Source of the DNA: a plasmid
Sequence record: NZ_CP038019.1
DNA: 39,819 bases
Reading direction: 5' to 3' (one strand)
Positions 9,090 to 39,771 of the stretch are shown here, one piece after another. Position numbers and translations under genes: made by a program. The notes under the pieces are model-generated. The model was not told the DNA's origin, searched no databases, and saw only the letters and a list, made by a program, of their open reading frames with translations. Each line of letters begins with the position of its first letter. Within the stretch, counting starts at the first letter, position 1.

Positions 9090-9272
9090 ATGGATACAAC
9101 AAACGATGTAATTGCCCAGAAAGTATTGGATTTGGACGTGCCGGGCGTGGAAGTGGCATTCGATCCCGAAGAGGCCGAGGCATTGGGTGCGTTTGTGGAA
9201 ACGGCATTGGAAGAAGCCGATGCGCGCGCCTCCGTCATCGATTTGGCCGAAATATCGGCTGAGGAGGCATAA
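9090..9272 (+). CDS. Small acidic protein, 60 aa, at the RP4 TraD position
   Basis: ORF with Asp/Glu/Ala-rich sequence whose stop overlaps the RBS GAGGAGG of the next gene. Assignment is by position only. Confidence 0.35.
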   Translation: MDTTNDVIAQKVLDLDVPGVEVAFDPEEAEALGAFVETALEEADARASVIDLAEISAEEA

Positions 9273-9273
9273 C

Positions 9274-12237
9274 ATGACGGCCAAAAAACCGTTCTACCAA
9301 CAAGTAGCCGATAAACTGATCGAACAGTTGCAACAAGGAACCGCTCCCTGGCAAAAGCCGTGGGATGGTGAAGGTATGCCAGACCACATGCCCCACAATA
9401 CGATTACCGGTCGCCGTTATCGCGGCATCAATAATCTGTGGTTGCTGGCACAACAACGGCAAGATCCACGTTGGATGACATACAAACAGGCTGCCGCAAT
9501 CGGTGCCCAGGTGCGTAAAGGCGAAAAGGGCACGGTCATTGAGTATTGGAAGTTTACTGAAGAAATCAACAAGACCGATGAGCAAGGCCGCGAAATCATT
9601 GGTGCAGACGGCAAACCGGAAAAACAGACGGTGCAGCTGGAGCGACCCAAAGTATTTCATGCCGTGGTGTTCAATGCCGAACAAATCGACAATCTGCCGC
9701 CATTGGAAATATCGCCGCTGGCTTGGAATCCGGACGAACGGGCAGAAACCATCCTGCGCAATTCCGGTGCTTTGATCCAGCATCGCGCCGGTGACCGAGC
9801 ATTTTATTCGCTCAGAACCGACAGCATCACCCTGCCCCTGCGTGAGCAATTCGCTGATGCGGGGCATTACTATGCCGTTGCCCTGCATGAATTAGGCCAT
9901 TGGACCGGGCATGAGACCCGGCTAAATCGTGATATGTCCCATCCGTTCGGCAGCGAAGGTTATGCCCGGGAAGAATTGCGGGCAGAAATCGCATCTTTGA
10001 TGCTGAGCCAGGACTTGGGCGTTTCTTTCCATCCCAAACAACATGCCAGCTATGTAGACAGTTGGATTAAAGCGTTACAAGATGATCCGATGGAAATCAT
10101 GCGGGCCGCTGCTGATGCGGAAAAAATACATGCTTATGTTATGGAACTGGCCCAGATGCAGACAGTTGAGCAGCAGCAGGAGGAGAGTATGGGGCAAACC
10201 CAGCAGAACATAGATGAAGCCAGTCTGGATGCGGAACGGCAGGCTCTCCAGGCTGTTCAAGATGGATCCATCGCTGAATCGGTCGACTCATTGGTCAAAG
10301 AGCACCGTGTATCAGATCTCAAACAATTAGATGCCATCGTGGCCACGATAGAAGAGAGTGGTCGGCAAGGTGCTTTTTGGCAGCGGCATCAGCCGCCGGC
10401 AGACGAAGCAGCTTTTTTGGTTAAGTTGGTTGAAGCCAGAACGGTCTTGGATGATGCTGTGCACCAGATGGCAGCCGAGGTCGAGTCGGTGGCCGAACAG
10501 CTGCAACCGTTCTTGCCGCCGCAATCGGATGACGAGACAGTCAAAATCGTATCTGATGAAAAACGCTATGTACAAATCCCGTATGCGGACAAAAATGAAG
10601 CCAAAGCCCTGGGTGCCCGTTGGGATAAGGAGAAGAAATCCTGGTATATCCCCCCTGGCGTTAATCAAGCACCATTTGAAAAATGGTTGAACAGCCCGGT
10701 CAATCAGGCACAAACGGTTAGTACCACGGAACCGGCCGCCGACAAAATTCTGATTGATGTCCCGTACCGTGAAAAAAATGATGCACGCGCCCTAGGTGCC
10801 CGTTGGGATAAAGAACAGAAATCCTGGTACATCCCGGCTGGCACCAATGCCGCCCTGTTTGCCCGCTGGATGCAGGCGAAACCGGAGGTTGTTGCAGAAG
10901 AAGCGGCTCCCGATTCAATGCCGCAAGATGCGGCGGTCGAGCAGCAAGCAGCTGCGGTGCAGCAAGAACGGCAGGCAATCCGGCAGCAACAGGGTGACCA
11001 AACGCTTGAACGGGTGTATTTGGCCGTACCGTATGCCGAACGCGGTGCAGCCAAGGAACAAGGTGCCCGCTGGGATAAGGCCAACAAGTCTTGGTACATC
11101 ACCAGCGATCATCCCAATTTATCGGCCGTTGCCAAATGGCTGCCGGAAAACCAAGCGCTTCAGAGCGAACCGGCGATGTCGCCGCAAGAAGAGTTTGCCG
11201 ATAAGTTGCGTGAATTGGGCTGCGTGGTGGAGAAGGGGCATCCGTTCATGGACGGGCAAAAGCACCGCATTACCACGGTTGGCGATAAAGCCGGAGAGAA
11301 ATCCGGCTTCTACATCGCTTATCTGGATGGGCATCCGGCCGGTTATGTGAAGAATAACCGGACCGGCCAAGAAGAGCGTTGGAAAGCCAAAGGTCATAGT
11401 TTATCGCCGGCAGAAAAAGCTAAACTGGCTGCCGAAAGTGCCAGCAAACTTCAACAGCGCGAAGAACAAAAGCGGCAGGCGCAAGAGGCGGCGGTTGAGC
11501 GCATCAAACACTATATGCGCGGTTATCAACCGGTGTCGGAACCAACCCCTTATTTACAGACGAAAGGCATCCAACCGCAACCGGGTATTTTTACCGACCG
11601 TACCGGCCAGAAAACCTATATCCCGGTTTATAACATCGAGGGCGAATTGCGTTCGATGCAGTATATCCAACCGGACGGCACCAAACGTTTCGCCAAGGAC
11701 AGCCAACAGGAGGGCGGTTTGCACGTCGTGGGCGCCCGCGACCTACAAACCGCCAGTACCATCGTGTTGGCCGAGGGCTACGCCACCGCCGCCACTATTA
11801 ACGAAGCCACGGACGAGACCGTGGCCTGTGTCGCCGCGTTTAATTCCGGTAACCTGCCGTTGGTGGCCGCCGAATTAAGCCGCCGCTATCCGGAAAAACA
11901 ATTTTTGGTTGCCGGGGATGATGATTTGGCGGTGCAGGCCAAACAAGGGCGCAACCCCGGACGGGAAAAAGCCATGGAAGCAGCGGCCGTGTTGAACTGC
12001 CCGGCGGTGTTGCCGGTTTTCGCCCCCGGCGAACAATCGGCTGATCAAAAAGCGTTCACCGATTTCAACGATTTGGCACAGAAATCGGCGTTTGGCCGTG
12101 AAGGCGTGGCCAAACAAATCGGTGAAAAAATCCGTGCTCAGGCTGTTACCCAAACGGCTCGGCACGACCGGAAGCCGCCTCAGCCAGAACGGGAGCAAGC
12201 CGTAGCAGTTAAAAAACGCAGTGGTCCGCGTCGTTAG
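9274..12237 (+). CDS. traC: TraC-like multidomain protein: an N-terminal ArdC-like ssDNA-binding and zincin domain, three tandem WYIP repeats, and a C-terminal Toprim DNA primase
   Basis: RBS GAGGAGG, then ATG at 9274. The first 54 codons of the ORF-track start at 9112 look like read-through junk. An HEXXH-type motif is present (ALHELGHWTGHE). There are three copies of the repeat PY(A/R)(D/E)KN(D/E)A(K/R)ALGARWDK(E/A)(K/Q)KSWYI. The Toprim segment reads VLAEGYATAATINEATDETV...FLVAGDDD. Confidence 0.8.
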   Translation: MTAKKPFYQQVADKLIEQLQQGTAPWQKPWDGEGMPDHMPHNTITGRRYRGINNLWLLAQQRQDPRWMTYKQAAAIGAQVRKGEKGTVIEYWKFTEEINKTDEQGREIIGADGKPEKQTVQLERPKVFHAVVFNAEQIDNLPPLEISPLAWNPDERAETILRNSGALIQHRAGDRAFYSLRTDSITLPLREQFADAGHYYAVALHELGHWTGHETRLNRDMSHPFGSEGYAREELRAEIASLMLSQDLGVSFHPKQHASYVDSWIKALQDDPMEIMRAAADAEKIHAYVMELAQMQTVEQQQEESMGQTQQNIDEASLDAERQALQAVQDGSIAESVDSLVKEHRVSDLKQLDAIVATIEESGRQGAFWQRHQPPADEAAFLVKLVEARTVLDDAVHQMAAEVESVAEQLQPFLPPQSDDETVKIVSDEKRYVQIPYADKNEAKALGARWDKEKKSWYIPPGVNQAPFEKWLNSPVNQAQTVSTTEPAADKILIDVPYREKNDARALGARWDKEQKSWYIPAGTNAALFARWMQAKPEVVAEEAAPDSMPQDAAVEQQAAAVQQERQAIRQQQGDQTLERVYLAVPYAERGAAKEQGARWDKANKSWYITSDHPNLSAVAKWLPENQALQSEPAMSPQEEFADKLRELGCVVEKGHPFMDGQKHRITTVGDKAGEKSGFYIAYLDGHPAGYVKNNRTGQEERWKAKGHSLSPAEKAKLAAESASKLQQREEQKRQAQEAAVERIKHYMRGYQPVSEPTPYLQTKGIQPQPGIFTDRTGQKTYIPVYNIEGELRSMQYIQPDGTKRFAKDSQQEGGLHVVGARDLQTASTIVLAEGYATAATINEATDETVACVAAFNSGNLPLVAAELSRRYPEKQFLVAGDDDLAVQAKQGRNPGREKAMEAAAVLNCPAVLPVFAPGEQSADQKAFTDFNDLAQKSAFGREGVAKQIGEKIRAQAVTQTARHDRKPPQPEREQAVAVKKRSGPRR
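10570..11145 (+). repeat. Three imperfect tandem repeats inside traC, each about 120 nt and about 230 nt apart
   Basis: ggtgcccg(t/c)tgggataa(g/a)...tcctggta(t/c)atccc recurs three times at the nucleotide level. The protein repeats are IPYADKNEAKALGARWDKEKKSWYIP, VPYREKNDARALGARWDKEQKSWYIP and VPYAERGAAKEQGARWDKANKSWYIT. Confidence 0.8.
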
Positions 12238-14381: not shown

Positions 14382-15043
14382 TGAATAAAAAAGCCAAAAT
14401 CGCCCGCATTTATTGTCGGGTATCCACTGTGCATCAAGATTTGACCCGGCAGATGGCGTTAGTCGAATGGGCAGAGCAGCGCGGCTATTATGTAGCCAAG
14501 GTATATGCAGAAAAAGCCAGCGGTCGCACAGCTAACCGTGAAAAGCTGGCCGAAATGATAGACGACCTGAAACAAGGGGAAGTGGTCATTGTAGAAAATA
14601 TCGACCGTCTAACCCGTCTGCCTATCAAGGAGGCGGAAAAGCTGATCGGCCGAATTAAAGCTAAAGGCGCACGGCTGGCCATGCCCGGCGTGGTGGATTT
14701 AGATGATTTGTATCCGGCCGACAGTATGGCCGGTATCGTGATGGATACCGTACAAGACCTGTTGCTGAAGATCGCCATGAAATCGGCCAGCGATGATTAC
14801 GAACTGCGCCGAGAGAGGCAGGCTGCCGGATTCGCTCGAGCTCGGGCAGAGGGGCGCAGCGTGGGTGGGCGCAGAATAGACCAGAAGCGTATCGATGCCG
14901 TAGCCTTTTGGCGTCAAAAAGGTTTGTCAATCGCGGAAACCGCCAAAGCATTGAGTTGTTCGCCAGGCACAGTTAAGCGAATCTGGCGGAAGATACAGGC
15001 TGGTGAATATAGGGTTTCCGGCAATAAGCTGCCCGAAAAATAG
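14381..15043 (+). CDS. Serine recombinase (resolvase/invertase family), probably the plasmid multimer resolvase
   Basis: N-terminal catalytic motif IYCRVSTVHQD (serine nucleophile). C-terminal HTH GLSIAETAKALSCSPGTVKRIWRK. Confidence 0.85.
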   Translation: MNKKAKIARIYCRVSTVHQDLTRQMALVEWAEQRGYYVAKVYAEKASGRTANREKLAEMIDDLKQGEVVIVENIDRLTRLPIKEAEKLIGRIKAKGARLAMPGVVDLDDLYPADSMAGIVMDTVQDLLLKIAMKSASDDYELRRERQAAGFARARAEGRSVGGRRIDQKRIDAVAFWRQKGLSIAETAKALSCSPGTVKRIWRKIQAGEYRVSGNKLPEK

Positions 15044-15168
15044 GCAGAGCCGGTGCGCTAGCATAAATTCAAGTGTTTATGCCGATCTGGCAGCCGTTGT
15101 TCATGGGGTTATGAACAGGGTTTGTGGAAAACTTGCCGGAGCAGTCTTTAACGAAGAAAGGAAATATC

Positions 15169-15387
15169 ATGGGACATACTGAAAAAAGAAGTGTTACTGA
15201 CGTTTATGGTGAATTGGTAAGGGATATGGAACGAAATGCGGCTGATCCAGAAAGTCGATTTTTTAATGGGGTTAGGGCAGTAATCATTGGTGATAGGATT
15301 AAACGTGGTGAAGAGGTAACAGAAGAGGATAGAAAGCTCTGGGAGCAAAAGGTCGTTGCATCTTTGACAACAAAAAGAGATAACTAA
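15169..15387 (+). CDS. Small protein, first gene of the zeta operon; omega-like regulator or antitoxin component
   Basis: RBS aaggaaa then ATG at 15169. 72 aa, charged. It sits in the same position as omega in omega-epsilon-zeta operons. Confidence 0.4.
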   Translation: MGHTEKRSVTDVYGELVRDMERNAADPESRFFNGVRAVIIGDRIKRGEEVTEEDRKLWEQKVVASLTTKRDN

Positions 15388-15404
15388 CTTATTAGGAACT
15401 GACT

Positions 15405-15629
15405 ATGAATACAATTAAACCTACTGGTCGTGATGATACCATTAAGATGATAAAAGAAGCTTGTGAGAAAAACCGTCGGATGATGGAAGACAAGGAGTAC
15501 TGCAAGAAAATAGAGGCTGAGTTGCATTACACTGTGGATTCTCCAGCAGTACAAAAGTTGCGTGAAGAGTTAAAAGTATTGAGAGGTCAGAGAGAACAAC
15601 AGGAGGTGGCTGCCGATGGTGGCGCTTAA
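15405..15629 (+). CDS. Epsilon-like antitoxin, 74 aa, translationally coupled to the zeta toxin gene
   Basis: Small helical acidic and basic protein. Its stop overlaps the zeta start by 14 nt. Confidence 0.5.
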   Translation: MNTIKPTGRDDTIKMIKEACEKNRRMMEDKEYCKKIEAELHYTVDSPAVQKLREELKVLRGQREQQEVAADGGA

Positions 15630-16821
15630 CTCCGAAATTAAAGAAAGAGATTTTTCAAATTCACCAGAACTGGCAGAAGTTCAAAGAGAAGCTATTGACC
15701 AGGCTAGCCGTTATACTGGTGAAATGCTTGAAAGATACAATCAGCATCCAGATACTTCCGATGGTCGCTATATTTGTGCGGACACCTTTAAAGAACTTTT
15801 TGCAGTATTTGAGAATAAAGATGATCGAGCCAAGGTCAACAATGCAATTCATAACTCGGCTGCCGTTTTATCCGCCACACAGTTTGATGAAATATTGAAA
15901 CGGGAAGAACCAGACAAGAGTCAAGCTATTTTTGTTACGGGGATTCCTGGGTCGGGTAAGACTACAACAGTAAAAAATATGATGATGCGGGAGAATACAA
16001 AGTTACTCTTTGAAGGACAGCTTGCACGGCCGCAACCTGCTTTCCATAAGATTGAGCAATGCTTGGGAAAAGGGTTGGAGGTTACTGTTGTGGCAGTCAG
16101 TATGACAGCAGAACGGGCTTTAGATAATACGTATAGGCGATTTAATGAATACGGGAGGGGTGCAAGCATTGGCATCATGGCTGATATTCAAGCCAATTTA
16201 CCCAATGGTCTTAGACAAATTCATGAAAGATTTGGCAATGCAGTCAAAATTGTTGGTATCAACCAAGATAAGAATAGCGAGTTTCTTGATAGGTTCGATG
16301 ATGTTCTCAACATGCTTTCCTTGGGGTCTCAAGACCAGATATTAGGTAGGTTGGCTGGAAAGATTCAGAGTGACTTGGTAACCGGGAAGATTGATGTATC
16401 CTGTTTCAATCAAGCCAAAGGCAGCATGAATTTAGAAAGCATTTTTGCTGAGAAAGAGTACGTGCAACAGAGGGTAGTAGTTAATTCTAAAAGTGTTGTG
16501 TTGGAAGCTAAACTGGCAAGCGGTATTTGGACGAAACTCAAAATAATACCAGTACAAGGGATGAAGGGCGGTGTTTATCCGTTGGGAACGGCCAAACCGG
16601 CCGCAGCCGACCAATCTTATGAAGGCGAAATTGTCTATAAGGATAATGCGTCGATTTTCCAGCAAACCAAGCAAGGGTTGGTTCGGCATCAGAACACCGA
16701 GCAGCTGGCCGGTCAGGTACGGATAGGGCAGCACTATGCCATCGGCAACGGCCAAGCCAAGGCAGTCAGCCTGACAGCCAGCCGGTCGATGAAGCAGACA
16801 CATGGTCGTCGGCTTCGATAG
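15616..16821 (+). CDS. Zeta-toxin family P-loop kinase (UNAG kinase type) fused to a shared C-terminal domain of about 115 aa
   Basis: Walker A IFVTGIPGSGKTTTVKN. Total 401 aa. The C-terminal 285-401 segment (VVNSKSVVLEAKL...GMKGGVYPLGTAK...RSMKQTHGRRLR) is homologous to the C-termini of the ORFs at 17188 and 38167. Confidence 0.8.
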   Translation: MVALNSEIKERDFSNSPELAEVQREAIDQASRYTGEMLERYNQHPDTSDGRYICADTFKELFAVFENKDDRAKVNNAIHNSAAVLSATQFDEILKREEPDKSQAIFVTGIPGSGKTTTVKNMMMRENTKLLFEGQLARPQPAFHKIEQCLGKGLEVTVVAVSMTAERALDNTYRRFNEYGRGASIGIMADIQANLPNGLRQIHERFGNAVKIVGINQDKNSEFLDRFDDVLNMLSLGSQDQILGRLAGKIQSDLVTGKIDVSCFNQAKGSMNLESIFAEKEYVQQRVVVNSKSVVLEAKLASGIWTKLKIIPVQGMKGGVYPLGTAKPAAADQSYEGEIVYKDNASIFQQTKQGLVRHQNTEQLAGQVRIGQHYAIGNGQAKAVSLTASRSMKQTHGRRLR

Positions 16822-16852
16822 GCAGGGCGGGATATAATAAAACAGCATAAAG

Positions 16853-17179
16853 ATGAAAGGAAGGGTGATGGCTGAATTAACTCACGAACAGAAACAGAAA
16901 TTGTTGGCCGAATTTGAACGGCCCAAGGTGGTGAAATACAGCCCGGAAGAGATCCGGTCTGGGAAAGAAATCTATATTCAGGTGGTGGCCAGCTGTGCAT
17001 TGGAGGGGCATGCCCCAGATGATTTTGGCAAAGTGGTAACGATGGAACGTATTCGTGGTGAATTAACTCCGGAAAAAGAGCTACAAATTTTATTACAGCA
17101 AGATCCGGTTGAGACAGAACGAATCCAAGCGAAAGTCGCACGTTTGCAAGAGTTGGGATTATCGTGGAAGGATTTATAG
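16853..17179 (+). CDS. Class I Fic antitoxin (VbhA-like). The probable true start is at 16868.
   Basis: Inhibitory (S/T)xxxE(G/N) motif present as SCALEG. It lies immediately upstream of a Fic gene. Confidence 0.55.
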   Translation: MKGRVMAELTHEQKQKLLAEFERPKVVKYSPEEIRSGKEIYIQVVASCALEGHAPDDFGKVVTMERIRGELTPEKELQILLQQDPVETERIQAKVARLQELGLSWKDL

Positions 17180-17187
17180 GATAAATC

Positions 17188-18261
17188 ATGGGGCTTTCTA
17201 ACGAAGAGCAAATGGAGTTCAACCGGGTTGTTACTAGTAATTTACAAATGGCAGTTGTCGAGTTAAGAGCAACCCAAGATTTTTCTTTCCATGGTTTGAA
17301 GCAACTTCATGATAAAACATTCTTTCCTAGCCCTAGTTTGCCGGAGAGAGTCCGGGTGGAAATGAATAATTTTTATCAAATGCGCCCGGCAAGGGAGGAT
17401 TGGGGTGGGAAGTTGCGCTTTAATATCACTCCGTATCCGTATGAGACGTATTATTCGCCGTTGGAAAAAGCCGATTATCAACAGGTGGAACGGGTCATTG
17501 GGCTGGCGAAATATGCCAATACCAAAGACTTACCATTTGAGGAGAAAGTGCAACGGTTGGCTCAAGTTTATGCCGAGGTCGACTATCTGCATGCCTTTTG
17601 GGATGGCAACAGCCGGGTGAATCGGGCCTTTGTCCAAGAGTTGGCGGCCAGTTCCGGAGTTGAACTCGATTTCAGTAAAGTCAGTGAAAAGGAGATGTAT
17701 ATCGCCCGGGATAAATCTCTGGCCGAACTGAATCTAAGCCGGCGTCCCGAGCAGTTGAAAAACCTGACGCATATGAATCCCAACCCGTACGTTAGCTTGC
17801 AGGGATCGCTGGAGGAGTTGAATCAGTATTACCCCAAGATAGATTTGCCTTCGGTATTTCGGCAGATTGCGGTGGAGCGGGCAATTCGCCAAGAGCTCGA
17901 TTACAGCCAGGTGCGGGCGGTGGTCAATTCATCTGGTGTTGTGCTGCAACAGAAAACCGGCGATGCCTGGCAGGATGTCGAGCGAATACCGGCAGAAGGG
18001 ATGAAGGCCGGTATTTATCCATTGGGCACGGCCAAGTCGGCTATTGCCGGCCAATCCTATGAGGGTGAGGTGGTTTATCGGGACAACGCTTCGATTTTTC
18101 AAAAGACCAAGCAAGGGCTGATTCGGCATCAGAATACCGAGCAGTTGGCCGTCCAGGTAAGGGTAGGGCAGCGCTATAGCATCGGTAAGGGGCAAGCCAA
18201 GGCAGCCAGCCAGACCGTCAGTCGGTCGATGAAACAGACGCATAGTCGTTGGATTCGATAA
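17188..18261 (+). CDS. Fic/Doc-family protein with a variant active-site motif, plus the shared C-terminal domain
   Basis: Motif HAFWDGNSRVNR against canonical HxFx(D/E)GNGRxxR. The C-terminal 233-357 segment is about 80% nucleotide-identical to the zeta C-terminus (GMKAGIYPLGTAK...RSMKQTHSRWIR). Confidence 0.75.
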   Translation: MGLSNEEQMEFNRVVTSNLQMAVVELRATQDFSFHGLKQLHDKTFFPSPSLPERVRVEMNNFYQMRPAREDWGGKLRFNITPYPYETYYSPLEKADYQQVERVIGLAKYANTKDLPFEEKVQRLAQVYAEVDYLHAFWDGNSRVNRAFVQELAASSGVELDFSKVSEKEMYIARDKSLAELNLSRRPEQLKNLTHMNPNPYVSLQGSLEELNQYYPKIDLPSVFRQIAVERAIRQELDYSQVRAVVNSSGVVLQQKTGDAWQDVERIPAEGMKAGIYPLGTAKSAIAGQSYEGEVVYRDNASIFQKTKQGLIRHQNTEQLAVQVRVGQRYSIGKGQAKAASQTVSRSMKQTHSRWIR

Positions 18262-18333
18262 TAGATGTAGTATTGATTGCAACTGCAAAACTTTTGTTTT
18301 ACAATTGCAGCCAATTTAAGAGGATATTTGTAA

Positions 18334-18620
18334 TGCGTAGTGTAAATTTTAACATCCGTATGGATGAAAGCCTCAAGGAGCAGTCATTTCCGATTATTGA
18401 AAGTTATGGCCTGACTCCTGCTCAAGCAGTCAAGCTGTTTTTGCGGCAAATTGCTGATACCCGGACTATTCCGATTTCTTTCAGTCATAAAGCGGGACAT
18501 ATTCCAAATCACTTGACTGAACAAGCGATTAAGGAAGCTCGGCTTGAAGCGGTGAAGGCGAAGCAATATGGTTCGATTGACGAGGTAATTGGCGCAATAC
18601 AAAAAGTTGCAGGGGAATAG
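18334..18620 (+). CDS. dinJ: RelB/DinJ-family antitoxin
   Basis: MRSVNFNIRMDESLKEQ... is a DinJ-type N-terminus. RBS aagagga. The ORF-track start at 18249 is probably too long. Confidence 0.7.
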
Positions 18621-18698
18621 CTTATGGATTAGATATTTAGTAAGCTGATTTTCTTGTAATATTTGTATTGCTTTTTATACCTTCAGTGAAAGGAAAAA

Positions 18699-18989
18699 AT
18701 GAGCAATAACAATAACTGTTATCGAGAAATCAGTATGACTGGTCAATTTAAACGCGATGTGAAGAAGCATTGTTCTGAATTGATTTCAAAAGAAGGAATA
18801 GAGATATTAGGCAAATTAATTAGGGACTTGCCTCTGCCAGAAAAATATTCAGATCATAAATTAAGCCATAATTGGGCAGATTGTCGCGATTGCCACATAA
18901 GACCAGACTTAGTACTGATATATAGAAAAACGAAAGAAAACGTATTACAGCTCATCCGTTTAGGGACTCATTCCGAGTTGTTTAAATAG
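18699..18989 (+). CDS. yafQ: YafQ/RelE-family type II toxin (mRNA interferase)
   Basis: 96 aa. HNWADCRDCHIRPDLVLIYRK...LIRLGTHSELF is the YafQ signature region. It lies downstream of the DinJ-like gene. Confidence 0.7.
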   Translation: MSNNNNCYREISMTGQFKRDVKKHCSELISKEGIEILGKLIRDLPLPEKYSDHKLSHNWADCRDCHIRPDLVLIYRKTKENVLQLIRLGTHSELFK

Positions 18990-19026
18990 TATGAACATAC
19001 CCTACGTAGATAAGTAAGATAGGAAA

Positions 19027-19061
19027 AGACCCAACACTATGTATTGTTGGGTCTTTTTCTT
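19027..19061. terminator. Bidirectional rho-independent terminator between the yafQ-like gene and trbN
   Basis: agacccaaca ctatgtat tgttgggtct then TTTTTCTT, with T-rich flanks on both strands. Confidence 0.6.
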
Positions 19062-19701
19062 ACTTTACTATTGGATTGCTCGATCGCCAAACCACCGAAC
19101 TGGTGGTTCTCGGGTCAGTATAACGGGCAGTGGCAGTTCGCTCCCTGACCACTGTCGCCGGTTGTAGGCTCGGCCGTCTTTCTTGGCGTCTAACCGGTTC
19201 GTGTCGAATCGGCCGGTTGCGTTCGGCCGCGACCGCTTGGGTGGGAACGGTTGAATTGGGTAAGTTGGCCGTTTGGATGCCGTGCGCTTGAAACCAGTTG
19301 CGCCACATCTCGGCATGCCGGATCAATTTTTGCCGGTATCGGCTGTTGAATCGTGGGGTGTAGGAATGGTAATTGGCCACCCGGGTCCATAAGTCCCCCC
19401 GGTCGCGCACGATGTGCCGCTTGATGCGCCAAGCGGCCAAGAAGTAGGAATAGCAGCCCGGCCGAGCCGCATCTTGCGGCGTGATACCGTATTTGGCCAA
19501 TGTGGCCAAATACGCGGTATTCAACTGCATGGCACCGACATCGTGGGTGCCGTTTTTGTTGCGTACCCACTGGCCAGGCCGGCCGTTTTCATTGCTTGCT
19601 ACGGCCAACAGAATCAACGGATCCAGCTGGTATTGGGCGGCGGCCTGCACCGAACAAACCGCCCGTTCCTGCTGTACTGCCGGCGGCAAATCTATTGCCA
19701 T
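19060..19701 (-). CDS. trbN: TrbN-like lytic transglycosylase (VirB1-like)
   Basis: SLT-domain segments AVASNENG...HDVGAMQLN. Last gene of the trb operon. Confidence 0.8.
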   Translation of the reverse strand: MAIDLPPAVQQERAVCSVQAAAQYQLDPLILLAVASNENGRPGQWVRNKNGTHDVGAMQLNTAYLATLAKYGITPQDAARPGCYSYFLAAWRIKRHIVRDRGDLWTRVANYHSYTPRFNSRYRQKLIRHAEMWRNWFQAHGIQTANLPNSTVPTQAVAAERNRPIRHEPVRRQERRPSLQPATVVRERTATARYTDPRTTSSVVWRSSNPIVK

Positions 19702-20402: not shown

Positions 20403-22016
20403 TTATTGCTGCTGTTGTTGCTGCGCCCGGTTGCGGGCGCTGACTTCTTTTAATGCTTGGCGTACTAAACCGACTCCGCCCAGCAGCATCAGTGCGGCAT
20501 TGAGCATGGAGCCAACCACGCTTTTTGCCGAAAACCCGATGCCTTCATTACCGCTGCCGCCGGCCAGGCTGCCCACCATTGGCGGTACCTTGGTGCATAA
20601 AATCGCCAGCGTCAGGCCGACTAGCAACAATACCGTATAGTGGAATAGCATAAAGCCTTCCGTTTGACTCACCATGCTGGTAATGATGTTTTTACCAATT
20701 GCCATCATCAACATCATGGTCATCAGTTGCAACCCGATATTCAGCAGCTGTCGATAATAAGAGATAGCCATGTCGGAGGTCCAACGTCCGCCGCCGAAGC
20801 CCAGTACGAATAGTCCGGCAGTCATATATATCCAGGCAGCGATATACAAAAGGGCGTAGTTGATTGCAATGAGTACCAAAGCAAAGAAAGTCACCACCAT
20901 CATCAGGATGGCGACAAACAATTCCGGATTGAGCCAAGAGGCTGCATTGGTAATATCTATTAGGTCGGGTATTTTGACTGCTCGGATCGAGTTGGCGGCC
21001 GCAGCACGGTTCCACATATCAAACAATGATTGTACGAAGCCGGCCGTTTTTTGTGTTTCACCGCCGGTACCGGCCTCAACCCCCAGTTGGTTGAACGAAT
21101 TGATGATGGATTCGCTGATGGCAAAACCGTTTTGCAGCAGCCACCAGAAAAAGCCGATGAACAAAATCAGGCGGATGGTTTCGGCGAAGAAGGCGGCAAT
21201 ATCGTCTTTACGGAATACCAGATCAATGCCGGTATAAACCACGCTGATGGCGGCCAGTGACCAAAACAACCAGCTGGCGGCAGTAGTCAGGGCGGTTACC
21301 CATTTGCCGGTGCCATCCCGGAAGGTATCCATTATCTGATCCAATACGCTGGCATCCACTGGGTTGTTGCCGGGGTCAAGTTTTTCCGCATCCGAGGCGC
21401 TTTCCAGATCTCCGTCTTCGATTGGTTGGATAGGTGTGCCACGTCCCTTGGCCATCCTGTCGGCCATATCGCAGATCGAGGTTTTATTGATGTCGCGGAA
21501 ACCGCCGCAACGGCCGGAATTCAGCATTTTTTGACAGTTGCCGACCCCCAGTTGCACACAGGCTAAAACCAGCTCTCCTGTTACCGGTCGGCCGTCAAAG
21601 GTTTTCATTTGCATCAATCGTCGCACCACGGGATTGCGCAACCCGTCCGTAGTCAATTTTGACCAGGCATTAAGCTGGGTTTGCAGACTGGCGAGTTTGT
21701 ATTGCTCCGGCGACATATGGGCATAAGCGCGGATATTGCGGTGGTTCAATTGCAATACACCGAAGCAGCAGGAGCCGTTATAGAGGTGCAGATAGCCGCC
21801 ACTTTCTACATTGATGGCTAGATTGGCCACGGCGTTGGCATTCTGTTTTAACCAAGGGCTGGCATAGGGTGAATTGCGAACAGCATCAACAATTTGTTGA
21901 TGTGTGGCACGTTGCTGGGAAAAGTAGGTTACTTTTCCCATCGCTGTTGTCGTCGACAACAGGAACAACAGGCACAAACCGATCAGTCGACACCAGATTG
22001 CCGTTAGCCGTTGCAT
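20403..22016 (-). CDS. trbL: TrbL/VirB6-family inner-membrane protein with an N-terminal periplasmic domain of about 200 aa and a poly-Q C-terminus
   Basis: Polytopic VirB6-like core FAETIRLILFIGFFWWLLQNGF... The protein ends in ...RAQQQQQQ. Confidence 0.8.
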   Translation of the reverse strand: MQRLTAIWCRLIGLCLLFLLSTTTAMGKVTYFSQQRATHQQIVDAVRNSPYASPWLKQNANAVANLAINVESGGYLHLYNGSCCFGVLQLNHRNIRAYAHMSPEQYKLASLQTQLNAWSKLTTDGLRNPVVRRLMQMKTFDGRPVTGELVLACVQLGVGNCQKMLNSGRCGGFRDINKTSICDMADRMAKGRGTPIQPIEDGDLESASDAEKLDPGNNPVDASVLDQIMDTFRDGTGKWVTALTTAASWLFWSLAAISVVYTGIDLVFRKDDIAAFFAETIRLILFIGFFWWLLQNGFAISESIINSFNQLGVEAGTGGETQKTAGFVQSLFDMWNRAAAANSIRAVKIPDLIDITNAASWLNPELFVAILMMVVTFFALVLIAINYALLYIAAWIYMTAGLFVLGFGGGRWTSDMAISYYRQLLNIGLQLMTMMLMMAIGKNIITSMVSQTEGFMLFHYTVLLLVGLTLAILCTKVPPMVGSLAGGSGNEGIGFSAKSVVGSMLNAALMLLGGVGLVRQALKEVSARNRAQQQQQQ

Positions 22017-22658: not shown

Positions 22659-24311
22659 CTATGCTTCCGGATCGTGATCCGGATTCCGTTCACGTTGTTG
22701 GCGGCGCTCCCGCTCTTCACGGATTTGGTTGGCCAGCTTCCCGCCGCGGGTTTGATTCATCAGGATCCGGCCGGCGGCGGTACTGATGGCTTGAATGGTA
22801 CTCATGGCAATGGTTTTGCTGGCCCCTTCCGCCGCAGCGGTATCGTTTTGCCCGGCGGCGGCCCGGCCGCCGGCATCGCCGCCTTTTTGCCCGCCACTGT
22901 CGGCTTTGCCGCCGGAGGCTTCCGGCGAACTGATAGTGTTGCCGCCACTGGTGTTGCTGCCGGCAACGTTGGTGGCTTGGGCGGTCGCTGCGGTGTTGCG
23001 GTTGCCTTCTGCGATCAGCGGCTGGCCGTCTTGGCTGGCGCTGTTGTCGGCCGAACCGGAATCACTCAGGGCTTCCATCGCACTGCTCTTGTGGTGGCTG
23101 TCGCCGGTTTCGCTTTGCGTACCGCCGCCTTGGTTTTTACCACCTTGGCTGACACTGTCTTTTTTCAGTTCGCGTACGGCTTTGGCAAAACCGGCCAGTT
23201 CCAAGGCCGCGCCCGTCATGGCTGCCGTGGCCGCCATCACCGCGCCGCCACCGAAGGCACCGACCCCGTTGCTGCCGCTGCCGCCGGCAATCGAGCCGAC
23301 CATTTGCGGGACTTTGTTGGATAAGATGAATAGGGTGATGGCCACCAGCAGCAGCACCACGAATTTGAAGAGTGCCATAGATTGGACGGCCTGACTGGCT
23401 TCTCCCATTACATTTTTAGCAATACCAATCATCAGGATCATGGTCATCAGTTGCAACCCGATATTCAGCAGCTGTTTGAAATAGGCCACCGCCATGTCCG
23501 AAGTCCAGCGCGAACCGCCGAAGCCCAATACGAATATGCCGGCGTACAAATACAGCCAGACCGAGATTTTGAGTAACAGGAAATTGATTGCGATCAGTGC
23601 GATGAATACTGTGGTCAAGACCAGCATAAGGATGCCGGCCAGTAGCTGAGCGCCGCTTAATTGGCTGGTACTTTTGACAGTATCTGCCCACAGTTTAAAG
23701 GCCAGCAACATCACGTCCGAAGGGGTGATGGGGCCGGTTTGCCCGGCCGATTCGCCTAATTGCACAAAAGAGTCGATGATGGCGGTACCGATGTCGATAC
23801 CGTTTTGCAGCAGCCACAGAAAAAAACCGAAAAACAGGATAAAGCGTACCGTTTCAGCAAAGAAATCGGCAATATCGCCCTTGCGGAACACCATCTGGAT
23901 TCCGGTCCAAGTGAGGCTGATGGCGCCCAAGGTAAAAAACAGCCAAGTGGCGCGTTGTACCAAGACATCGCTCCATTTTTGTGCTTTATTCTTGAATTCC
24001 CTTTCAATCATGGAGAATTTTTGGGCATCACTGTCTACCGGCATCGATTCTTCGGCGACAGTGTCATTTTTCGGCGGGTTAATTAGCACCGCTTCCCCGC
24101 CGACGGACACGATTCTGGGCTCGGAGGCAGCCGATGGCTGTTCGACGGTTTGCTGTTTTGGCTCGGATGCCGCTGTCGGTTGGGGGTCCCCCCAAGCGCC
24201 GGCGGCAAACAGCAGCAGTCCCAGCAATAGTAGACAAAATGGCAACCAGCGTTGTATCCGGTGCGTCCAGGTTAGTGATGTCGAGACAGGCAGCGTGGCG
24301 GTAGCCATCAC
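22659..24311 (-). CDS. Second TrbL/VirB6 paralogue with a long Gly/Ser/Ala-rich, charged C-terminal extension
   Basis: FAETVRFILFFGFFLWLLQNGIDIGTAIIDSFVQLG aligns with FAETIRLILFIGFFWWLLQNGFAISESIINSFNQLG of trbL. C-terminus is ...GGSGSNGVGAFGGG...REERERRQQRERNPDHDPEA. Confidence 0.75.
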   Translation of the reverse strand: MMATATLPVSTSLTWTHRIQRWLPFCLLLLGLLLFAAGAWGDPQPTAASEPKQQTVEQPSAASEPRIVSVGGEAVLINPPKNDTVAEESMPVDSDAQKFSMIEREFKNKAQKWSDVLVQRATWLFFTLGAISLTWTGIQMVFRKGDIADFFAETVRFILFFGFFLWLLQNGIDIGTAIIDSFVQLGESAGQTGPITPSDVMLLAFKLWADTVKSTSQLSGAQLLAGILMLVLTTVFIALIAINFLLLKISVWLYLYAGIFVLGFGGSRWTSDMAVAYFKQLLNIGLQLMTMILMIGIAKNVMGEASQAVQSMALFKFVVLLLVAITLFILSNKVPQMVGSIAGGSGSNGVGAFGGGAVMAATAAMTGAALELAGFAKAVRELKKDSVSQGGKNQGGGTQSETGDSHHKSSAMEALSDSGSADNSASQDGQPLIAEGNRNTAATAQATNVAGSNTSGGNTISSPEASGGKADSGGQKGGDAGGRAAAGQNDTAAAEGASKTIAMSTIQAISTAAGRILMNQTRGGKLANQIREERERRQQRERNPDHDPEA

Positions 24312-36234: not shown

Positions 36235-37008
36235 ATGGAGGTAGCGATGAAAACCATCGTGGTAGCCCAGCAAAAGGGTGGGGTCGGCAAAACAGCACTT
36301 GCGCTACATTTGGCTTGGTTTCTAACCGAGCGTAAGAGCAGCAAAGTGTTATTTATTGATTTAGATACCCAAGGCAATGCGACTTATTCCTTGTCTGGGG
36401 TAAAACAAATTGTCGGTATGGGTAGCGGTAACTTATTTTCGGCTGATTTGACGGTTACCTATGATTTCTCTGATTCTCCCCTGGTGTTACTTCCGGCCGG
36501 CAGTATGCTGGCCAATATCCAAAACCTGTCTTTACAGGAAGCCGCATCTGCCTTTTTGAGTAATTTTAATGCCATTAAGGAAATGGGTTATTTTGATTAC
36601 TGCGTGATTGATACCCCGCCGAGCTTAGGCAATGCTTTGGCCGCCGCATTGATGGCTGCTGATTTTGTGGTGTGCCCGATTGAACCGGAAACTTATAGTA
36701 TCCAAGGTATTGGTCAAATGGCATTAACCATTAATAACATCAAAAAAATCAACAAGAACCTGACCTTTTTGGGATTGTTGCCAAGTAAAGTAGACATGCG
36801 TAATCCACGGCATATCAAACATTTAGCACAGATTAAGAGCCAATACAGTGATTATTTGATTCCGGTATCTATTGGTTTACGCAGCAGCATTGCTGATGCG
36901 GTTGCCTCCAGTGTCCCGGTGTGGCACATCAAAAGGACTGCGGCCCGAAAAGCGGCCAAAGAAGTGAATGCAGTTGCCGAATATATTTTTACAAGAATGC
37001 GAGGTTAA
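36235..37008 (+). CDS. incC: ParA/IncC partition ATPase. The likely true start is at 36247.
   Basis: Deviant Walker A QQKGGVGKTALALHLA. ParA-type length. Encoded upstream of the parB/korB-like gene. Confidence 0.85.
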   Translation: MEVAMKTIVVAQQKGGVGKTALALHLAWFLTERKSSKVLFIDLDTQGNATYSLSGVKQIVGMGSGNLFSADLTVTYDFSDSPLVLLPAGSMLANIQNLSLQEAASAFLSNFNAIKEMGYFDYCVIDTPPSLGNALAAALMAADFVVCPIEPETYSIQGIGQMALTINNIKKINKNLTFLGLLPSKVDMRNPRHIKHLAQIKSQYSDYLIPVSIGLRSSIADAVASSVPVWHIKRTAARKAAKEVNAVAEYIFTRMRG

Positions 37009-37932: not shown

Positions 37933-38157
37933 ATGCAACTGAATGATGAACAGAGACGCGAACTTGAAGAAAATATGAAGCAAACAGACGCCATTTTAGC
38001 GTTGGAGGGATTTGAAAAGACCGAAGAGAGTCGGGCCAGAAATAAAGCTGTTTTAGCTGGTCGCTTTACTCATGAGGAACTGGCTGAATTGATGCTTGCC
38101 TATGCTCAAAAACATAAAACTATTGAAGGATTTAATCAAAGTATGGGAATAGATTAA
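37933..38157 (+). CDS. Small Fic antitoxin-like protein (VbhA-like)
   Basis: 74 aa. ILALEG resembles the xxxE(G/N) inhibitory motif. It is coupled 10 nt upstream of a canonical Fic gene. Confidence 0.5.
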   Translation: MQLNDEQRRELEENMKQTDAILALEGFEKTEESRARNKAVLAGRFTHEELAELMLAYAQKHKTIEGFNQSMGID

Positions 38158-38166
38158 GGAAGTATT

Positions 38167-39195
38167 GTGGCAAGCGTATATAGGGACAATAATGGGGTGC
38201 TGAAGAATAAGCTAGGGATTACTGATGCTGATGAATTGCGTAAATTGGAGTACGCCCTTACTGAAGAAAAGATAAACGGGATTCTATCAAAGGGAAGTTT
38301 GGGAAACATACAAGGTTACGGTTTGGAACGGCAGCAGGCTATTCACCAACACTTATTTGAAGGTATCTACGAGTGGGCAGGCAAGGTACGGACTGTACCT
38401 TCCAGCAAAGGGATGGGTGGCGGTTTAGTGTCCATATTCGCCGATCCGGATGAAATCCACCAGGTTTGGGGTTTATTGGAGCAGAAAACCGCCCGTTTTG
38501 CCCGAGCCGAAAATCTGAGTTTTGAGCAAAAATTAGAAGAGTTGACCGATATATTTATCCAAGCCAACCATGCCCACCCCTTTCCGGAAGGGAATGGCCG
38601 CAGCTTACAAGTATTCATGCGCCAGCTGGCAGCCGAGCAGGGTATCCGTTTGGATTACAGTAAAAACGATAAAGACGAGTGGAACTATGCCAGCGCCATA
38701 AGCGGGGTATATGGGGTATTTTGGGAGGACAATGGAGAGAAATACGTGAATCCCCTGCCGTCAAACAAGGAACCGATTAAAGCTATTTTCCGTAATATGG
38801 CGACCCCTATGCAGACTTTGAATCAGACACCCCAGGAAAATATAAACGTGGAGAAGCAGCGGGTGGTAGTCATGAACAAGACTTACCTGCTGGAAACCGA
38901 GCAGAACGGCAAATGGCAGACGGTAAGTGTCACTCCTGCCCCCAAAGGGATGAAGCCAGGGGTTTATTTGCTGCATACGGCCAAAGAGGCGGCAGAAGGC
39001 CAGGAATATGATGGCCAGATTGTGCACAAGGATAAAAATCATGTGTTCCAAAAAACCGCATCTGGAATAGTCAAACATCCGGCTAAAGCGTTTGTCCAGC
39101 TGCCGGAATTGGGTGCCACGGTTTCGATAAAACGCCAAGGGGATAAGGTTGTGGTGGCGGAAAGCCGGGGGCGGAAATCAGGCCGCCGTATCTAA
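38167..39195 (+). CDS. Fic adenylyltransferase-type toxin with a canonical motif, plus the shared C-terminal domain
   Basis: HAHPFPEGNGRSLQVF matches HPFx(D/E)GNGR. The C-terminal 228-342 segment (GMKPGVYLLHTAKEAAEGQEYDGQIVHKD...ESRGRKSGRRI) is homologous to the C-termini of the ORFs at 15616 and 17188. Confidence 0.85.
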   Translation: MASVYRDNNGVLKNKLGITDADELRKLEYALTEEKINGILSKGSLGNIQGYGLERQQAIHQHLFEGIYEWAGKVRTVPSSKGMGGGLVSIFADPDEIHQVWGLLEQKTARFARAENLSFEQKLEELTDIFIQANHAHPFPEGNGRSLQVFMRQLAAEQGIRLDYSKNDKDEWNYASAISGVYGVFWEDNGEKYVNPLPSNKEPIKAIFRNMATPMQTLNQTPQENINVEKQRVVVMNKTYLLETEQNGKWQTVSVTPAPKGMKPGVYLLHTAKEAAEGQEYDGQIVHKDKNHVFQKTASGIVKHPAKAFVQLPELGATVSIKRQGDKVVVAESRGRKSGRRI

Positions 39196-39210: not shown

Positions 39211-39226
39211 ATCTTGGAGGACATCA

Positions 39227-39771
39227 TGAGCAGTGACAGTGGATTGGTTAAAGCAGATGCCCTACTCCATGAGGCAAGGGATGATGTGGCCGCATTCGAT
39301 AGTTTGTTGGAAAAGCGGGCACAGCTAGAATATGAATTTAATAGTCTGGCCGATGCCTGCCTGCTGGAAAAAGTAGCACAGGTGGAACGTATCGAGGAAC
39401 GTTTGGAAGCCATGATTGCCCGCCAGCGCGATAAAATTCAAAGCCTGCAAAATCACAAACCAGGATTATTTAAGCTACCTAAGGCAAGAGGGGTTTGGGC
39501 TGACCAATGCCAACAGGCGCAGTCGCGATTGTTGATGTTGGCCGACCGGCTAGAAGATGTTCAAGAGCTCAAGCATGGTATGGGTAGCAAAAATTCCCGG
39601 TTACAGGTGTTGGCAGTACAAAAAACCAGGATGAATCACCAAGAGTTGGCACAGGAATTGGATGAGGCCCAAGTTGCGGTACGAGTGCACCGCTTGCATC
39701 AGCAACAGTTGGCCAAGAAAAAACAGACCCAGAGCATGGGTCTGGGTCAGTCCTTGACTATTGAGCATTAG
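39227..39771 (+). CDS. Alpha-helical, coiled-coil-type protein under a KorB operator; KfrA-like by position
   Basis: RBS ggagg then ATG at 39227. The sequence is charged and helical (LEKRAQLEYEFNSLADACLLEKVAQVERIEERLEAMIARQRDKIQSLQ). Assignment is by context only. Confidence 0.35.

Follow-up and report, generated by a model that had tools for sequence, protein, structure and literature searches.

A predicted class I FicTA module with a serine in its active-site motif on a pConj-like conjugative plasmid

Introduction

Can a Fic protein carry a side chain where the canonical active-site motif has its second glycine and still serve as the toxin of a toxin-antitoxin (TA) pair, and what would such a side chain mean for its chemistry? 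This question is raised by the plasmid sequence NZ_CP038019.1, of which we analysed a stretch of 39,819 nucleotides (hereafter "the window", meaning this whole stretch). An original prediction, made from the letters of the sequence, had pointed to a Fic-family protein encoded at positions 17188-18261, with a deviant motif and with the product of a small open reading frame (ORF) upstream as its inhibitor. We refer to the two gene products as the Fic toxin and the antitoxin, and their coordinates are collected in Table 1. As judged from comparisons of sequences and structural models, the two genes are likely to constitute an active class I FicTA module of the VbhTA type with a remodelled nucleotide pocket. 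The module appears to be located in the accessory region of a conjugative plasmid of ~40 kb that is of the Eikenella/Neisseriaceae kind and resembles pConj, with an IncP-like backbone, a MOBP relaxase and a Trb-type type IV secretion system (T4SS).

Results

The Fic toxin

The ORF, its Pfam match and the AlphaFold fold all agreed with the prediction of a Fic protein. The product is composed of a class I Fic domain (residues 1 to ~230), an OB/KfrB domain (residues ~240-325) and a basic tail. The Pfam family Fic/Fido (PF02661) was matched with an E-value of 1.1e-5 and 26.6 bits, the cut-off being 24, and the NCBIfam models EcFic and VbhT matched weakly. Structure prediction, which had been proposed as a check, resulted in a confidently modelled Fic fold, where residues 1-230 mostly reached predicted local distance difference test (pLDDT) values of 90 or more. 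The Foldseek matches to this fold were Bep1, BepC, VbhT and EcFicT, at target-normalised TM-scores of 0.55-0.64, and by sequence and Foldseek together the nearest solved relatives were VbhT, the Beps and EcFicT. In the AlphaFold model and the alignment, a helical insertion of ~20 residues precedes the flap in the window's branch of Fic proteins, and the flap itself (KLRF-NITPYPY-ETYY) is unlike that of the FicT toxins, including VbhT.

We found no record identical to the Fic toxin protein, and a megablast search of positions 15300-19000 against PLSDB gave no match. All loci of Fic toxin homologues that were examined were situated in conjugative T4SS neighbourhoods. Purifying selection acts on the Fic toxin gene: in comparisons with three of four orthologues, the ratio of nonsynonymous to synonymous substitution rates (dN/dS) was 0.12-0.19 in both halves of the gene, while the fourth orthologue (L023) is near-identical to the Fic toxin and, with a dS of 0.004, uninformative for this ratio.

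The antitoxin

Translation of the antitoxin probably starts at the ATG at position 16868, because a strong Shine-Dalgarno sequence (AAAGGAAGG) is located just 5′ of this codon and the antitoxin gene calls in near-identical contigs are 103 residues long. At every locus examined, an upstream ORF of 97-110 residues accompanied the toxin, and the antitoxins of three independent loci (L001, L003 and L006) were 53-61% identical to that of the window. When these four antitoxins were aligned, A46, S47, L50 and E51 (numbered from position 16853) proved to be invariant, and the Gly of the inhibitory motif was Asp in one of them. A profile of the four was compared with the PDB, and the best matches were three VbhA chains with marginal E-values of 0.003-0.04. 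In this alignment VASfaLEGaePD is paired with LASQRLEGLEPD of VbhA, which brings SxxxEG into register with the SQRLEG of VbhA. With VbhA as the best PDB match and S47 and E51 invariant, the earlier view of the SCALEG-bearing upstream ORF as the inhibitory partner was sustained. The Fic toxin sequence itself contains no [ST]xxxE[GN] inhibitory motif. Since the SxxxEG motif resides on a separate VbhA homologue and is absent from the toxin, the pair can be assigned by sequence to the class I FicTA arrangement.

A conserved serine in the active-site motif

Two of the motif deviations listed in the original prediction stood, namely the serine for the second glycine and the alanine for the proline; the tryptophan that had been added to them occupies a free "x" position and is no deviation. 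The canonical second glycine (G2), which puts no side chain next to the beta/gamma-phosphate site, is replaced by Ser142 in the Fic toxin. Across 26 homologues, down to 20% identity, D139, G140, N141, S142, R143 and R146 were invariant, and so was H135, with F137 replaced by Tyr in one homologue. Because these residues are invariant in 26 homologues and dN/dS is low, HAFWDGNSRVNR is not a chance string.

A word-indexed search retrieved only 21 relatives. Eikenella halliae and Kingella kingae were the only sources named for them, and H[AS][FY]xDGNSRVNR was present in every relative that has a Fic domain. Later look-ups extended this core family to Cardiobacterium and Paralysiella, and the window's branch was found in Eikenella, Kingella, Cardiobacterium and Paralysiella only. 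An exhaustive profile search against 1.84 billion cluster representatives yielded 12 matches with E < 1e-30, which correspond to the core family; past this family the score fell sharply, with 213 matches below 1e-10 and 891 below 1e-3. The core family and the 150 best of these 891 cluster representatives made up the 158 sequences on which the clade counts given here are based. At the second-glycine position, Ser was found in 155 of the 158 sequences, Thr in 2 and Asn in 1, and Gly or Ala never occurred. The serine, which had been taken for a peculiarity of one protein, is instead the hallmark of a large clade. The consensus of this clade is HPFx[D/E]GNSRTLR, the last Arg (R2) being conserved in 156 and the D/E in 157 of the 158 sequences. 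Motif position 2 is Pro in 128 of them and A, S, G, M or L in the window's branch, which also reads VNR where the wider clade has TLR. Since only S, T and N are found at the second-glycine position, never Ala or Gly, this pattern of residues indicates that the serine is functional and not merely tolerated. A published analysis holds that a side chain at this position should interfere with the binding of the beta- and gamma-phosphates (PMC8401265). No PDB entry with a GNSR motif was found in our searches, and the nearest solved proteins (VbhT and the Beps) have GNGR.

The named members of the clade include plasmid proteins of Xanthomonas citri and Methylobacterium radiotolerans and one protein from a metagenome-assembled genome of Accumulibacter. 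Searching PLSDB with the Xanthomonas protein gave 139 plasmids, 104 of which are typed as conjugative; the matches include the PromA plasmids pIPO2 and pSB102, as well as IncP plasmids of ~50-70 kb from Klebsiella, E. coli and Enterobacter. On the Xanthomonas plasmids, the NCBI annotation already reads "Fic family protein" and "antitoxin VbhA family protein". The clade ORF of pIPO2 and pSB102 is labelled just "hypothetical 37 kDa protein", and the members on enterobacterial IncP plasmids are labelled Fic, VbhT or KfrB domain-containing protein. A full-text literature search found no paper in which any member of the Ser clade was assayed. By these sequence counts, Ser142 marks a large Fic clade that occurs mainly on conjugative plasmids and is without a solved structure.

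A second clade motif on the ribose side

According to the same published analysis, a Ser or Cys located ~28 residues after R2 forms a hydrogen bond with the ribose, and an N or D at position H-3 is poised for ribose binding (PMC8401265). Asp at H-3 (D132 in the Fic toxin) was present in 158 of 158 clade sequences. The segment with the ribose-contacting residue appears to be replaced by a second clade motif, xRD (Table 1), in which Y171, A173, R174, D175 and K176 were invariant in the homologue alignment. The pattern Y-x-A-R-D was found 24-31 residues past the last Arg in 154 of the 158 clade sequences, and two of the four exceptions are truncated. We placed xRD using alignments to Bep1, to the second Fic protein of the window (FicB) and to the Fic protein of the IncP-1 plasmid pAKD4, and the location of the VbhT-type ribose Ser was read from the aligned RAS segment. 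Either A173, R174 or D175 falls on the ribose Ser/Cys position, the HMMER and BLAST alignments varying by one to two residues.

The serine and xRD appear to co-vary. The IncP proteins of E. cloacae CP035638.1 and pAKD4 are 44% identical and occupy the same backbone position, and they differ at exactly both sites: the former has GNSR together with LYLARD and a six-residue insert, whereas the latter has GNGR and TQASIE.

A C-terminal domain shared by unrelated toxins

When residues 219-354 of the Fic toxin were compared by phmmer, they matched the gonococcal ng_zeta1 structure (6EPH) with an E-value of 2e-29, and ng_zeta1 was also among the Foldseek matches of the Fic toxin model. The Pfam KfrB domain (PF18790) scored 23.9 bits on residues 290-333, just below the 25-bit cut-off, which was passed by the paralogous tails of the window's zeta1 protein (28.7 bits) and FicB (43.9 bits). 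The OB/KfrB domain and its tail, ~135 residues in all, thus end three proteins of the window: zeta1, the Fic toxin and the second Fic. Over the last 20 residues the net charge is +5 for the Fic toxin and +5 or +6 for the three tails. The tails of zeta1 and the Fic toxin are 67% identical as proteins, and the corresponding direct repeat in the DNA (Table 1) has a spacing of 1440 bp, start to start. The same domain also ends both zeta toxins of pConj, the enterobacterial IncP GNSR-Fic and the pAKD4 Fic (seven-way alignment A4), and every OB/KfrB-tailed protein that was aligned finishes in a basic tail. Other Fic proteins of the core family have unrelated, low-complexity C-termini. Since the OB/KfrB tail is common to unrelated toxins and the corresponding slot in pConj holds an epsilon/zeta pair, either the toxin heads seem to have been swapped while the tail stayed constant, or tails have moved between heads.

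A further KfrB-type domain was seen in an Eikenella element (L007, 6609-7634), in a 341-residue protein with a lipase-like head (GHSKGG nucleophile elbow) that ends in ...RKNIQRR. Among the clade proteins P0022-P0203, 85 of 187 end in Arg, with ...KGIER, ...RGPER, ...RGLDR and ...SRGRSR as recurrent endings, and the TraI relaxases of related plasmids (L025-L031) end in ...KGR[S/N/H]R. Judging by their sequences, the Arg-ending tails of the clade and the TraI ends might act as one common C-terminal signal for the T4SS.

The C-terminal domain of ng_zeta1 was described as being of unknown function (PMC5923241, Rocker et al.). VbhT, a Fic-BID protein, is exported by the conjugative T4SS of its own plasmid, and fusions of Fic to BID and of PezT(zeta) to BID have been found elsewhere (PMC5675462, Harms et al.). 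The plasmid of the window carries the same pair of toxin families, Fic and zeta, but with another common C-terminal domain. No BID domain was detected in the Fic toxin, where the VbhT model matches the FIC part alone. This NCBIfam model aligns at positions 2-192 only, and we found no sequence support for a likeness between KfrB and the region following FIC in VbhT. An origin of KfrB from a relaxase C-terminal domain, as for BID, was considered and rejected: BLASTP gave nothing, and hhalign of alignment A4 against the TraI C-terminal alignment A6 returned a probability of 2.4%. Foldseek comparison with the FIC-OB constructs of Bep1 and BepA covered ~330-340 columns, a faint hint that FIC and a beta domain may follow each other in the same order, but with a large root-mean-square deviation, and the C-terminal part of the model has low pLDDT values of 50-70. 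When the KfrB domain by itself was the query, the word-indexed search retrieved one fragment. In the literature we found no relevant paper on the KfrB domain or on KfrB combined with Fic, and a paper on polyvalent proteins makes no mention of Kfr.

The second Fic module and KfrB of IncP-1 plasmids

The window encodes a second Fic protein with a small partner. In the motif of this FicB (HPFPEGNGRSLQ), the last Arg, which binds the gamma-phosphate and the inhibitor, is changed to Gln, and its partner reads AILALEG, with Ile at the position where Ser or Thr is expected. Based on these two changes, FicB and its partner may be a co-adapted toxin and antitoxin with an altered inhibition contact. In the original prediction, a canonical Fic toxin next to the pair had been taken to argue for a distinct activity or target of the Fic toxin. 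This argument is weak, since FicB lacks the final Arg and lies 20 kb away, and is therefore neither canonical nor adjacent.

FicB is located after korB and before a KfrC homologue, which corresponds to the kfrB slot of IncP-1 plasmids. In pAKD4 (L022, GQ983559.1, 3286-4442), this slot holds a VbhA-like ORF (ALASQRIEGLEPD) and a VbhT-like Fic protein of 323 residues (HPFREGNGRTQR), which scores 272 bits against the VbhT model. The last 114 residues of this pAKD4 Fic are what the record calls "KfrB stable inheritance protein". At the sequence level, this points to IncP-1 KfrB being a relative of a FicT toxin tail, or what is left of one.

The plasmid and the genes around the module

Besides the modules described above, the window encodes, according to Pfam, TrfA, SSB, IncC/ParA, KorB (36921-37919), a NikA-like protein, a TraI relaxase of the MOBP type and a coupling protein of the VirD4 type (4371-6320), together with a Trb-type T4SS comprising TrbB, TrbE, TrbF, TrbG, TrbI, two TrbL paralogues and TrbM. 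An Eikenella contig of 41 kb (GCA_001648345.1) encodes a protein identical to the second Fic. Because the gene order in this contig joins the end of the window to its start, the window appears to be essentially a whole circular plasmid of ~40 kb.

A matching backbone is found in pConj, the conjugative plasmid of gonococci (MOBP, MPF_T). In pConj the order is M15 peptidase ... epsilon1/zeta1 - second epsilon/zeta - recombinase - VapD - TrbN - TrbM, and in the window it is M15 peptidase ... resolvase - epsilon1/zeta1 - [antitoxin/Fic] - RelB/YafQ - TrbN - TrbM. On comparing the two gene orders, we conclude that the antitoxin/Fic pair fills the second epsilon/zeta slot of pConj, amid addiction modules. 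The epsilon1/zeta1 pair at 15405-16821 is an orthologue, on an Eikenella-type plasmid, of the gonococcal pConj UNAG/UNAM kinase, which is a proposed drug target. Counting the module at 37933-39195, the plasmid has four modules of TA type. A promoter and terminator scan of positions 15000-19100 gave fewer matches than shuffled sequence did and none between zeta1 and the antitoxin; a match resembling a sigma-70 promoter was noted at 18277-18305, 5′ of RelB/YafQ.

Several other genes deserve mention. Positions 9112-12237 encode a polyvalent protein of 1041 residues with an ArdC N-domain, a zincin metallopeptidase, three DUF5710 repeats, a Toprim primase and the tail ...KKRSGPRR; from this domain composition it is likely to be an establishment protein transferred by the T4SS. 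Two TrbL/VirB6 paralogues (20403-22016 and 22659-24311) belong to one T4SS operon, and the same duplication occurs in the Eikenella element L007. A gene for topoisomerase III (6885-9086) is located beside the transfer genes, which is noteworthy because classical FicT toxins poison gyrase and topoisomerase IV.

Table 1. Positions of the main features within the window
Feature	Position	Strand	Basis or remark
epsilon1-like (15405-15629) and zeta1-like (15616-16821, 401 aa) pair	15405..16821	+	Pfam Zeta_toxin, KfrB; pConj layout
Direct repeat partner, zeta1 3′ end	16545..16820	+	80% DNA identity over 276 nt to 17985-18260, the 3′ end of the Fic gene
Antitoxin, VbhA family, 103 aa from ATG 16868 (longest ORF from 16853, 108 aa)	16868..17179	+	Stop 8 nt before toxin start
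Putative inhibitory-helix motif SCALEG	16991..17008	+	Sole [ST]xxxE[GN] in antitoxin ORF
Fic toxin gene, 357 aa, ATG start	17188..18261	+	ORF list, Pfam Fic and KfrB, AlphaFold, Foldseek
Active-site motif HAFWDGNSRVNR, residues 135-146 = H135-A-F-W-D139-G-N141-S142-R143-V-N-R146	17590..17625	+	Ser for second Gly, Ala for Pro
Second clade motif xRD, Y171-I-A-R174-D175-K-S177	17698..17718	+	Appears to replace segment with ribose-contacting Ser/Cys of VbhT and Bep-type Fic
C-terminal OB/KfrB domain, ending in basic tail ...SRSMKQTHSRWIR	17842..18261	+	phmmer, Pfam, alignment A4
RelB/YafQ toxin-antitoxin pair	18333-18989		Directly downstream of Fic gene
Second module: 74-aa partner ORF 37933-38157 ("...AILALEGFE..."), then Fic-KfrB "FicB" 38167-39195	37933..39195	+	Synteny with IncP-1 pAKD4
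KfrC homologue after FicB	39214..39771	+	BLASTP against pAKD4 KfrC, 41% identity, E 1e-23

Discussion

A proposed mode of action

The catalytic His, the Asp, the Asn, both Arg residues of the motif, the Asp at H-3 and the Ser and Glu of the antitoxin are all kept, and the Fic toxin would therefore be an active enzyme that binds a nucleoside triphosphate (NTP). Freed from its antitoxin, it would use His135 as general base to modify a hydroxyl on a conserved bacterial protein with a phosphoryl-linked group taken from an NTP, resulting in growth arrest. As far as the sequence tells, its chemistry is most likely the transfer of AMP or another nucleoside monophosphate (NMP), and the transferred group would most likely be AMP from ATP. 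By analogy with VbhA and VbhT, the Glu of the antitoxin would engage Arg146 and thereby mis-position the gamma-phosphate. Ser142 and the pair Arg174/Asp175 would reshape the pocket on its beta/gamma-phosphate and ribose sides, respectively, such that nucleotide preference or geometry is altered while catalysis is kept; Ser142 may be an extra phosphate ligand, and Arg174 and Asp175 may be new ligands of the ribose or a phosphate. The module would stabilise its plasmid via post-segregational killing.

The OB/KfrB domain with its tail could be a portable module linking plasmid toxins to plasmid machinery. The Fic toxin has the traits of a T4SS effector, being encoded with a positively charged tail on a plasmid that has its own T4SS, coupling protein, TraI and Trb genes. 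We favour a reading in which the OB/KfrB tail mediates export by the T4SS into recipients, as the analogy with the BID fusions would have it; alternatively, the tail may bind the KfrA/KfrC-KorB segregation complex. A more far-reaching proposal, drawn by the same analogy, is that this tail makes toxin heads of several kinds (the zeta kinase, two kinds of Fic and the lipase-like head) substrates of Trb-type T4SSs that enter recipients together with the DNA, as BID does for VbhT, that IncP-1 KfrB is an orphaned toxin tail, and that the clade with GNSR and xRD performs a modification other than standard AMPylation. We put this forward as speculation that may well turn out to be wrong.

Several observations weigh against an active VbhTA-type module with an exported toxin. 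The VbhA match of the antitoxin is marginal, with E 0.003 at best. The ordinary binding of ATP by the Fic toxin may be impaired, since a side chain at the second glycine is disfavoured (PMC8401265), and the Pro that rigidifies the loop is lost in the window's branch. GyrB or ParE, which FicT toxins AMPylate on a Tyr of the ATPase domain, cannot be assumed as the target, because the flap and the ~20-residue insertion differ from those of FicT toxins. Furthermore, homology of KfrB was detectable neither to BID nor to the region following FIC in VbhT nor to the relaxase C-terminal domain.

Other explanations

Two other explanations keep the Fic toxin as an enzyme and differ in what they make of Ser142. 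If the residue were neutral, the protein would be an ordinary FicT that AMPylates GyrB and ParE like VbhT, EcFicT and YeFicT. Such a toxin could be expected from its closest solved relatives (VbhT, the Beps and EcFicT), from the retention of H, D, N, R1 and R2 next to a VbhA-like antitoxin, and from the positional equivalent in pAKD4, which is close to VbhT and has a canonical motif. We nevertheless regard it as unlikely, since hundreds of clusters strictly retain the serine, Gly and Ala never take its place, it co-varies with xRD, the flap and the region preceding it are unlike those of FicTs, and a side chain at this position is structurally disfavoured (PMC8401265). The opposite view, raised in the original prediction, that the Ser clade carries out another modification, be it Doc-like phosphorylation with inverted ATP, transfer of another NMP or phosphocholination, is possible, albeit on the doubtful side. 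It can draw on the conserved polar side chain at the second-glycine site, where Doc has Lys and AMPylators have Gly, on an invariant Arg-Asp that remodels the pocket near the ribose, and on the Fic2 protein of Campylobacter fetus, which has Thr at this position and is toxic with a translation-type phenotype. However, both motif Arg residues and a Glu-type inhibitor aimed at R2 follow the canonical logic of triphosphate binding, and the Asp at H-3, which serves ribose binding in AMPylators, is universal in the clade. The motifs of Doc and AnkX lack the final Arg, and in AnkX the first Gly is changed as well. Because these two proteins moreover use other inhibitors, Doc-like and AnkX-like mechanisms fit poorly, and both identities of the Fic toxin failed in motif tests. 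The comparison with AnkX and Doc that had been drawn earlier is thus not borne out: with the Arg pair, the Mg-binding Asp and a Glu-bearing antitoxin retained, a triphosphate-type substrate would be bound roughly as in AMPylators.

It has also to be considered that the pair serves primarily as an anti-phage abortive-infection module and not in plasmid maintenance or transfer. A match to the candidate Fic defence family PDC-S04 of PADLOC (E 8.6e-17) and an Abi_2 gene near a homologue in a related Eikenella element speak for this idea. Yet the match covers the generic Fic core alone and PDC-S04 is just a candidate system, the gene is located between the epsilon/zeta and RelB/YafQ addiction modules in the load region of the plasmid, and every homologue found resides on a conjugative element, all of which makes a primary anti-phage role improbable. 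Least probable of all, to a degree that we would be surprised to see it confirmed, is a catalytically dead scaffold, in which the Fic domain would serve for partner binding alone, as BepC has been proposed to do, and the OB/KfrB domain would provide the activity. The loss of the motif Pro and the second Gly would suit such a scaffold, as would the role of KfrB on its own as a stability factor of IncP-1 plasmids, but His, the Mg-binding Asp and both Arg residues of the active site are invariant, and a dedicated inhibitory antitoxin is kept under selection. Our preferred reading thus remains that of an active, VbhA-controlled Fic enzyme with a remodelled pocket.

Implications

Members of the Ser clade reach clinical enterobacterial IncP plasmids as well as plasmids of plant pathogens. 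Their conserved Ser (rarely Thr or Asn) and the change on the ribose side stand against the published rule that the second glycine is required for triphosphate binding, and a single assayed member would either extend the nucleotide-binding rules of Fic proteins or reveal a new modification. The tail that recurs on three toxins of the window, on the pConj zeta toxins, a proposed drug target, and in IncP-1 KfrB offers a handle on the function of the KfrB domain. It also bears on the question whether conjugative plasmids routinely inject addiction toxins into recipients.

Comparison with known systems

Among the systems most similar to the module is VbhT/VbhA of Bartonella schoenbuchensis pVbh (3SHG, 3ZC7), in which a class I Fic protein is likewise encoded just 3′ of an antitoxin with S-x-x-x-E-G. 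VbhT and the Fic toxin of the window are each carried by a conjugative plasmid that encodes a T4SS of its own, and both have a non-catalytic C-terminal extension with a basic tail. They differ in that VbhT combines the canonical HPFREGNGRTLR with BID, whereas the Fic toxin has Ser for the second Gly, Ala for Pro, ARD for the segment with the ribose Ser, and another flap. The extension of the Fic toxin is OB/KfrB, without detectable similarity to the C-terminus of VbhT, and its antitoxin is ~40 residues longer than VbhA.

With the ng_epsilon1/ng_zeta1 system of pConj (6EPG/6EPH), the module shares the backbone and the insertion slot, and the zeta1 orthologue of the window adjoins the antitoxin/Fic pair. 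The head of ng_zeta1 is a UNAG/UNAM kinase and its antitoxin is epsilon, whereas the pair described here consists of a Fic protein and a VbhA-like antitoxin. Fic2 of C. fetus (HPFREGNTRTIA, GNTR), the sole experimental precedent that we found, is like the Fic toxin linked to a T4SS and carries a hydroxyl in the side chain that replaces the second Gly. Fic2 was toxic in E. coli, which required the catalytic His, and it disturbs the joining of the ribosomal subunits (PMC5651007). In Fic2, unlike in the Fic toxin, the last Arg is missing as well, and its neutralising partner is Fic1, itself a Fic protein, in place of a small antitoxin of the VbhA type. Doc, with the motif HxFx(D/N)(A/G)NKR, has Lys at G2, no final Arg and Phd as antitoxin, where the Fic toxin has Ser, R146 and a VbhA-like antitoxin. 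AnkX (HxFxDANGRxxV) is a large effector targeted to eukaryotes; the Fic toxin keeps the first Gly and the final Arg and is bacterial and of TA type.

The proteins with HPFx(D/E)GNSRTLR, encoded on ~47 kb Xanthomonas citri plasmids, pIPO2, pSB102 and CP035638.1, have GNSR with xRD, a VbhA-type antitoxin upstream and a conjugative plasmid as their carrier, as is the case for the Fic toxin. The enterobacterial IncP version also has the KfrB C-terminal domain and a basic tail. The identity of the Fic toxin to these proteins is ~25-35%, and it differs from them by A, S or G for Pro, VNR for TLR and the ~20-residue insertion before the flap. Lastly, IncP-1 KfrB and the pAKD4 Fic-KfrB protein have the KfrB C-terminal domain in common with the Fic toxin. 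The pAKD4 Fic is canonical (GNGR), unlike the Fic toxin, and its positional equivalent in the window is FicB at 38167-39195.

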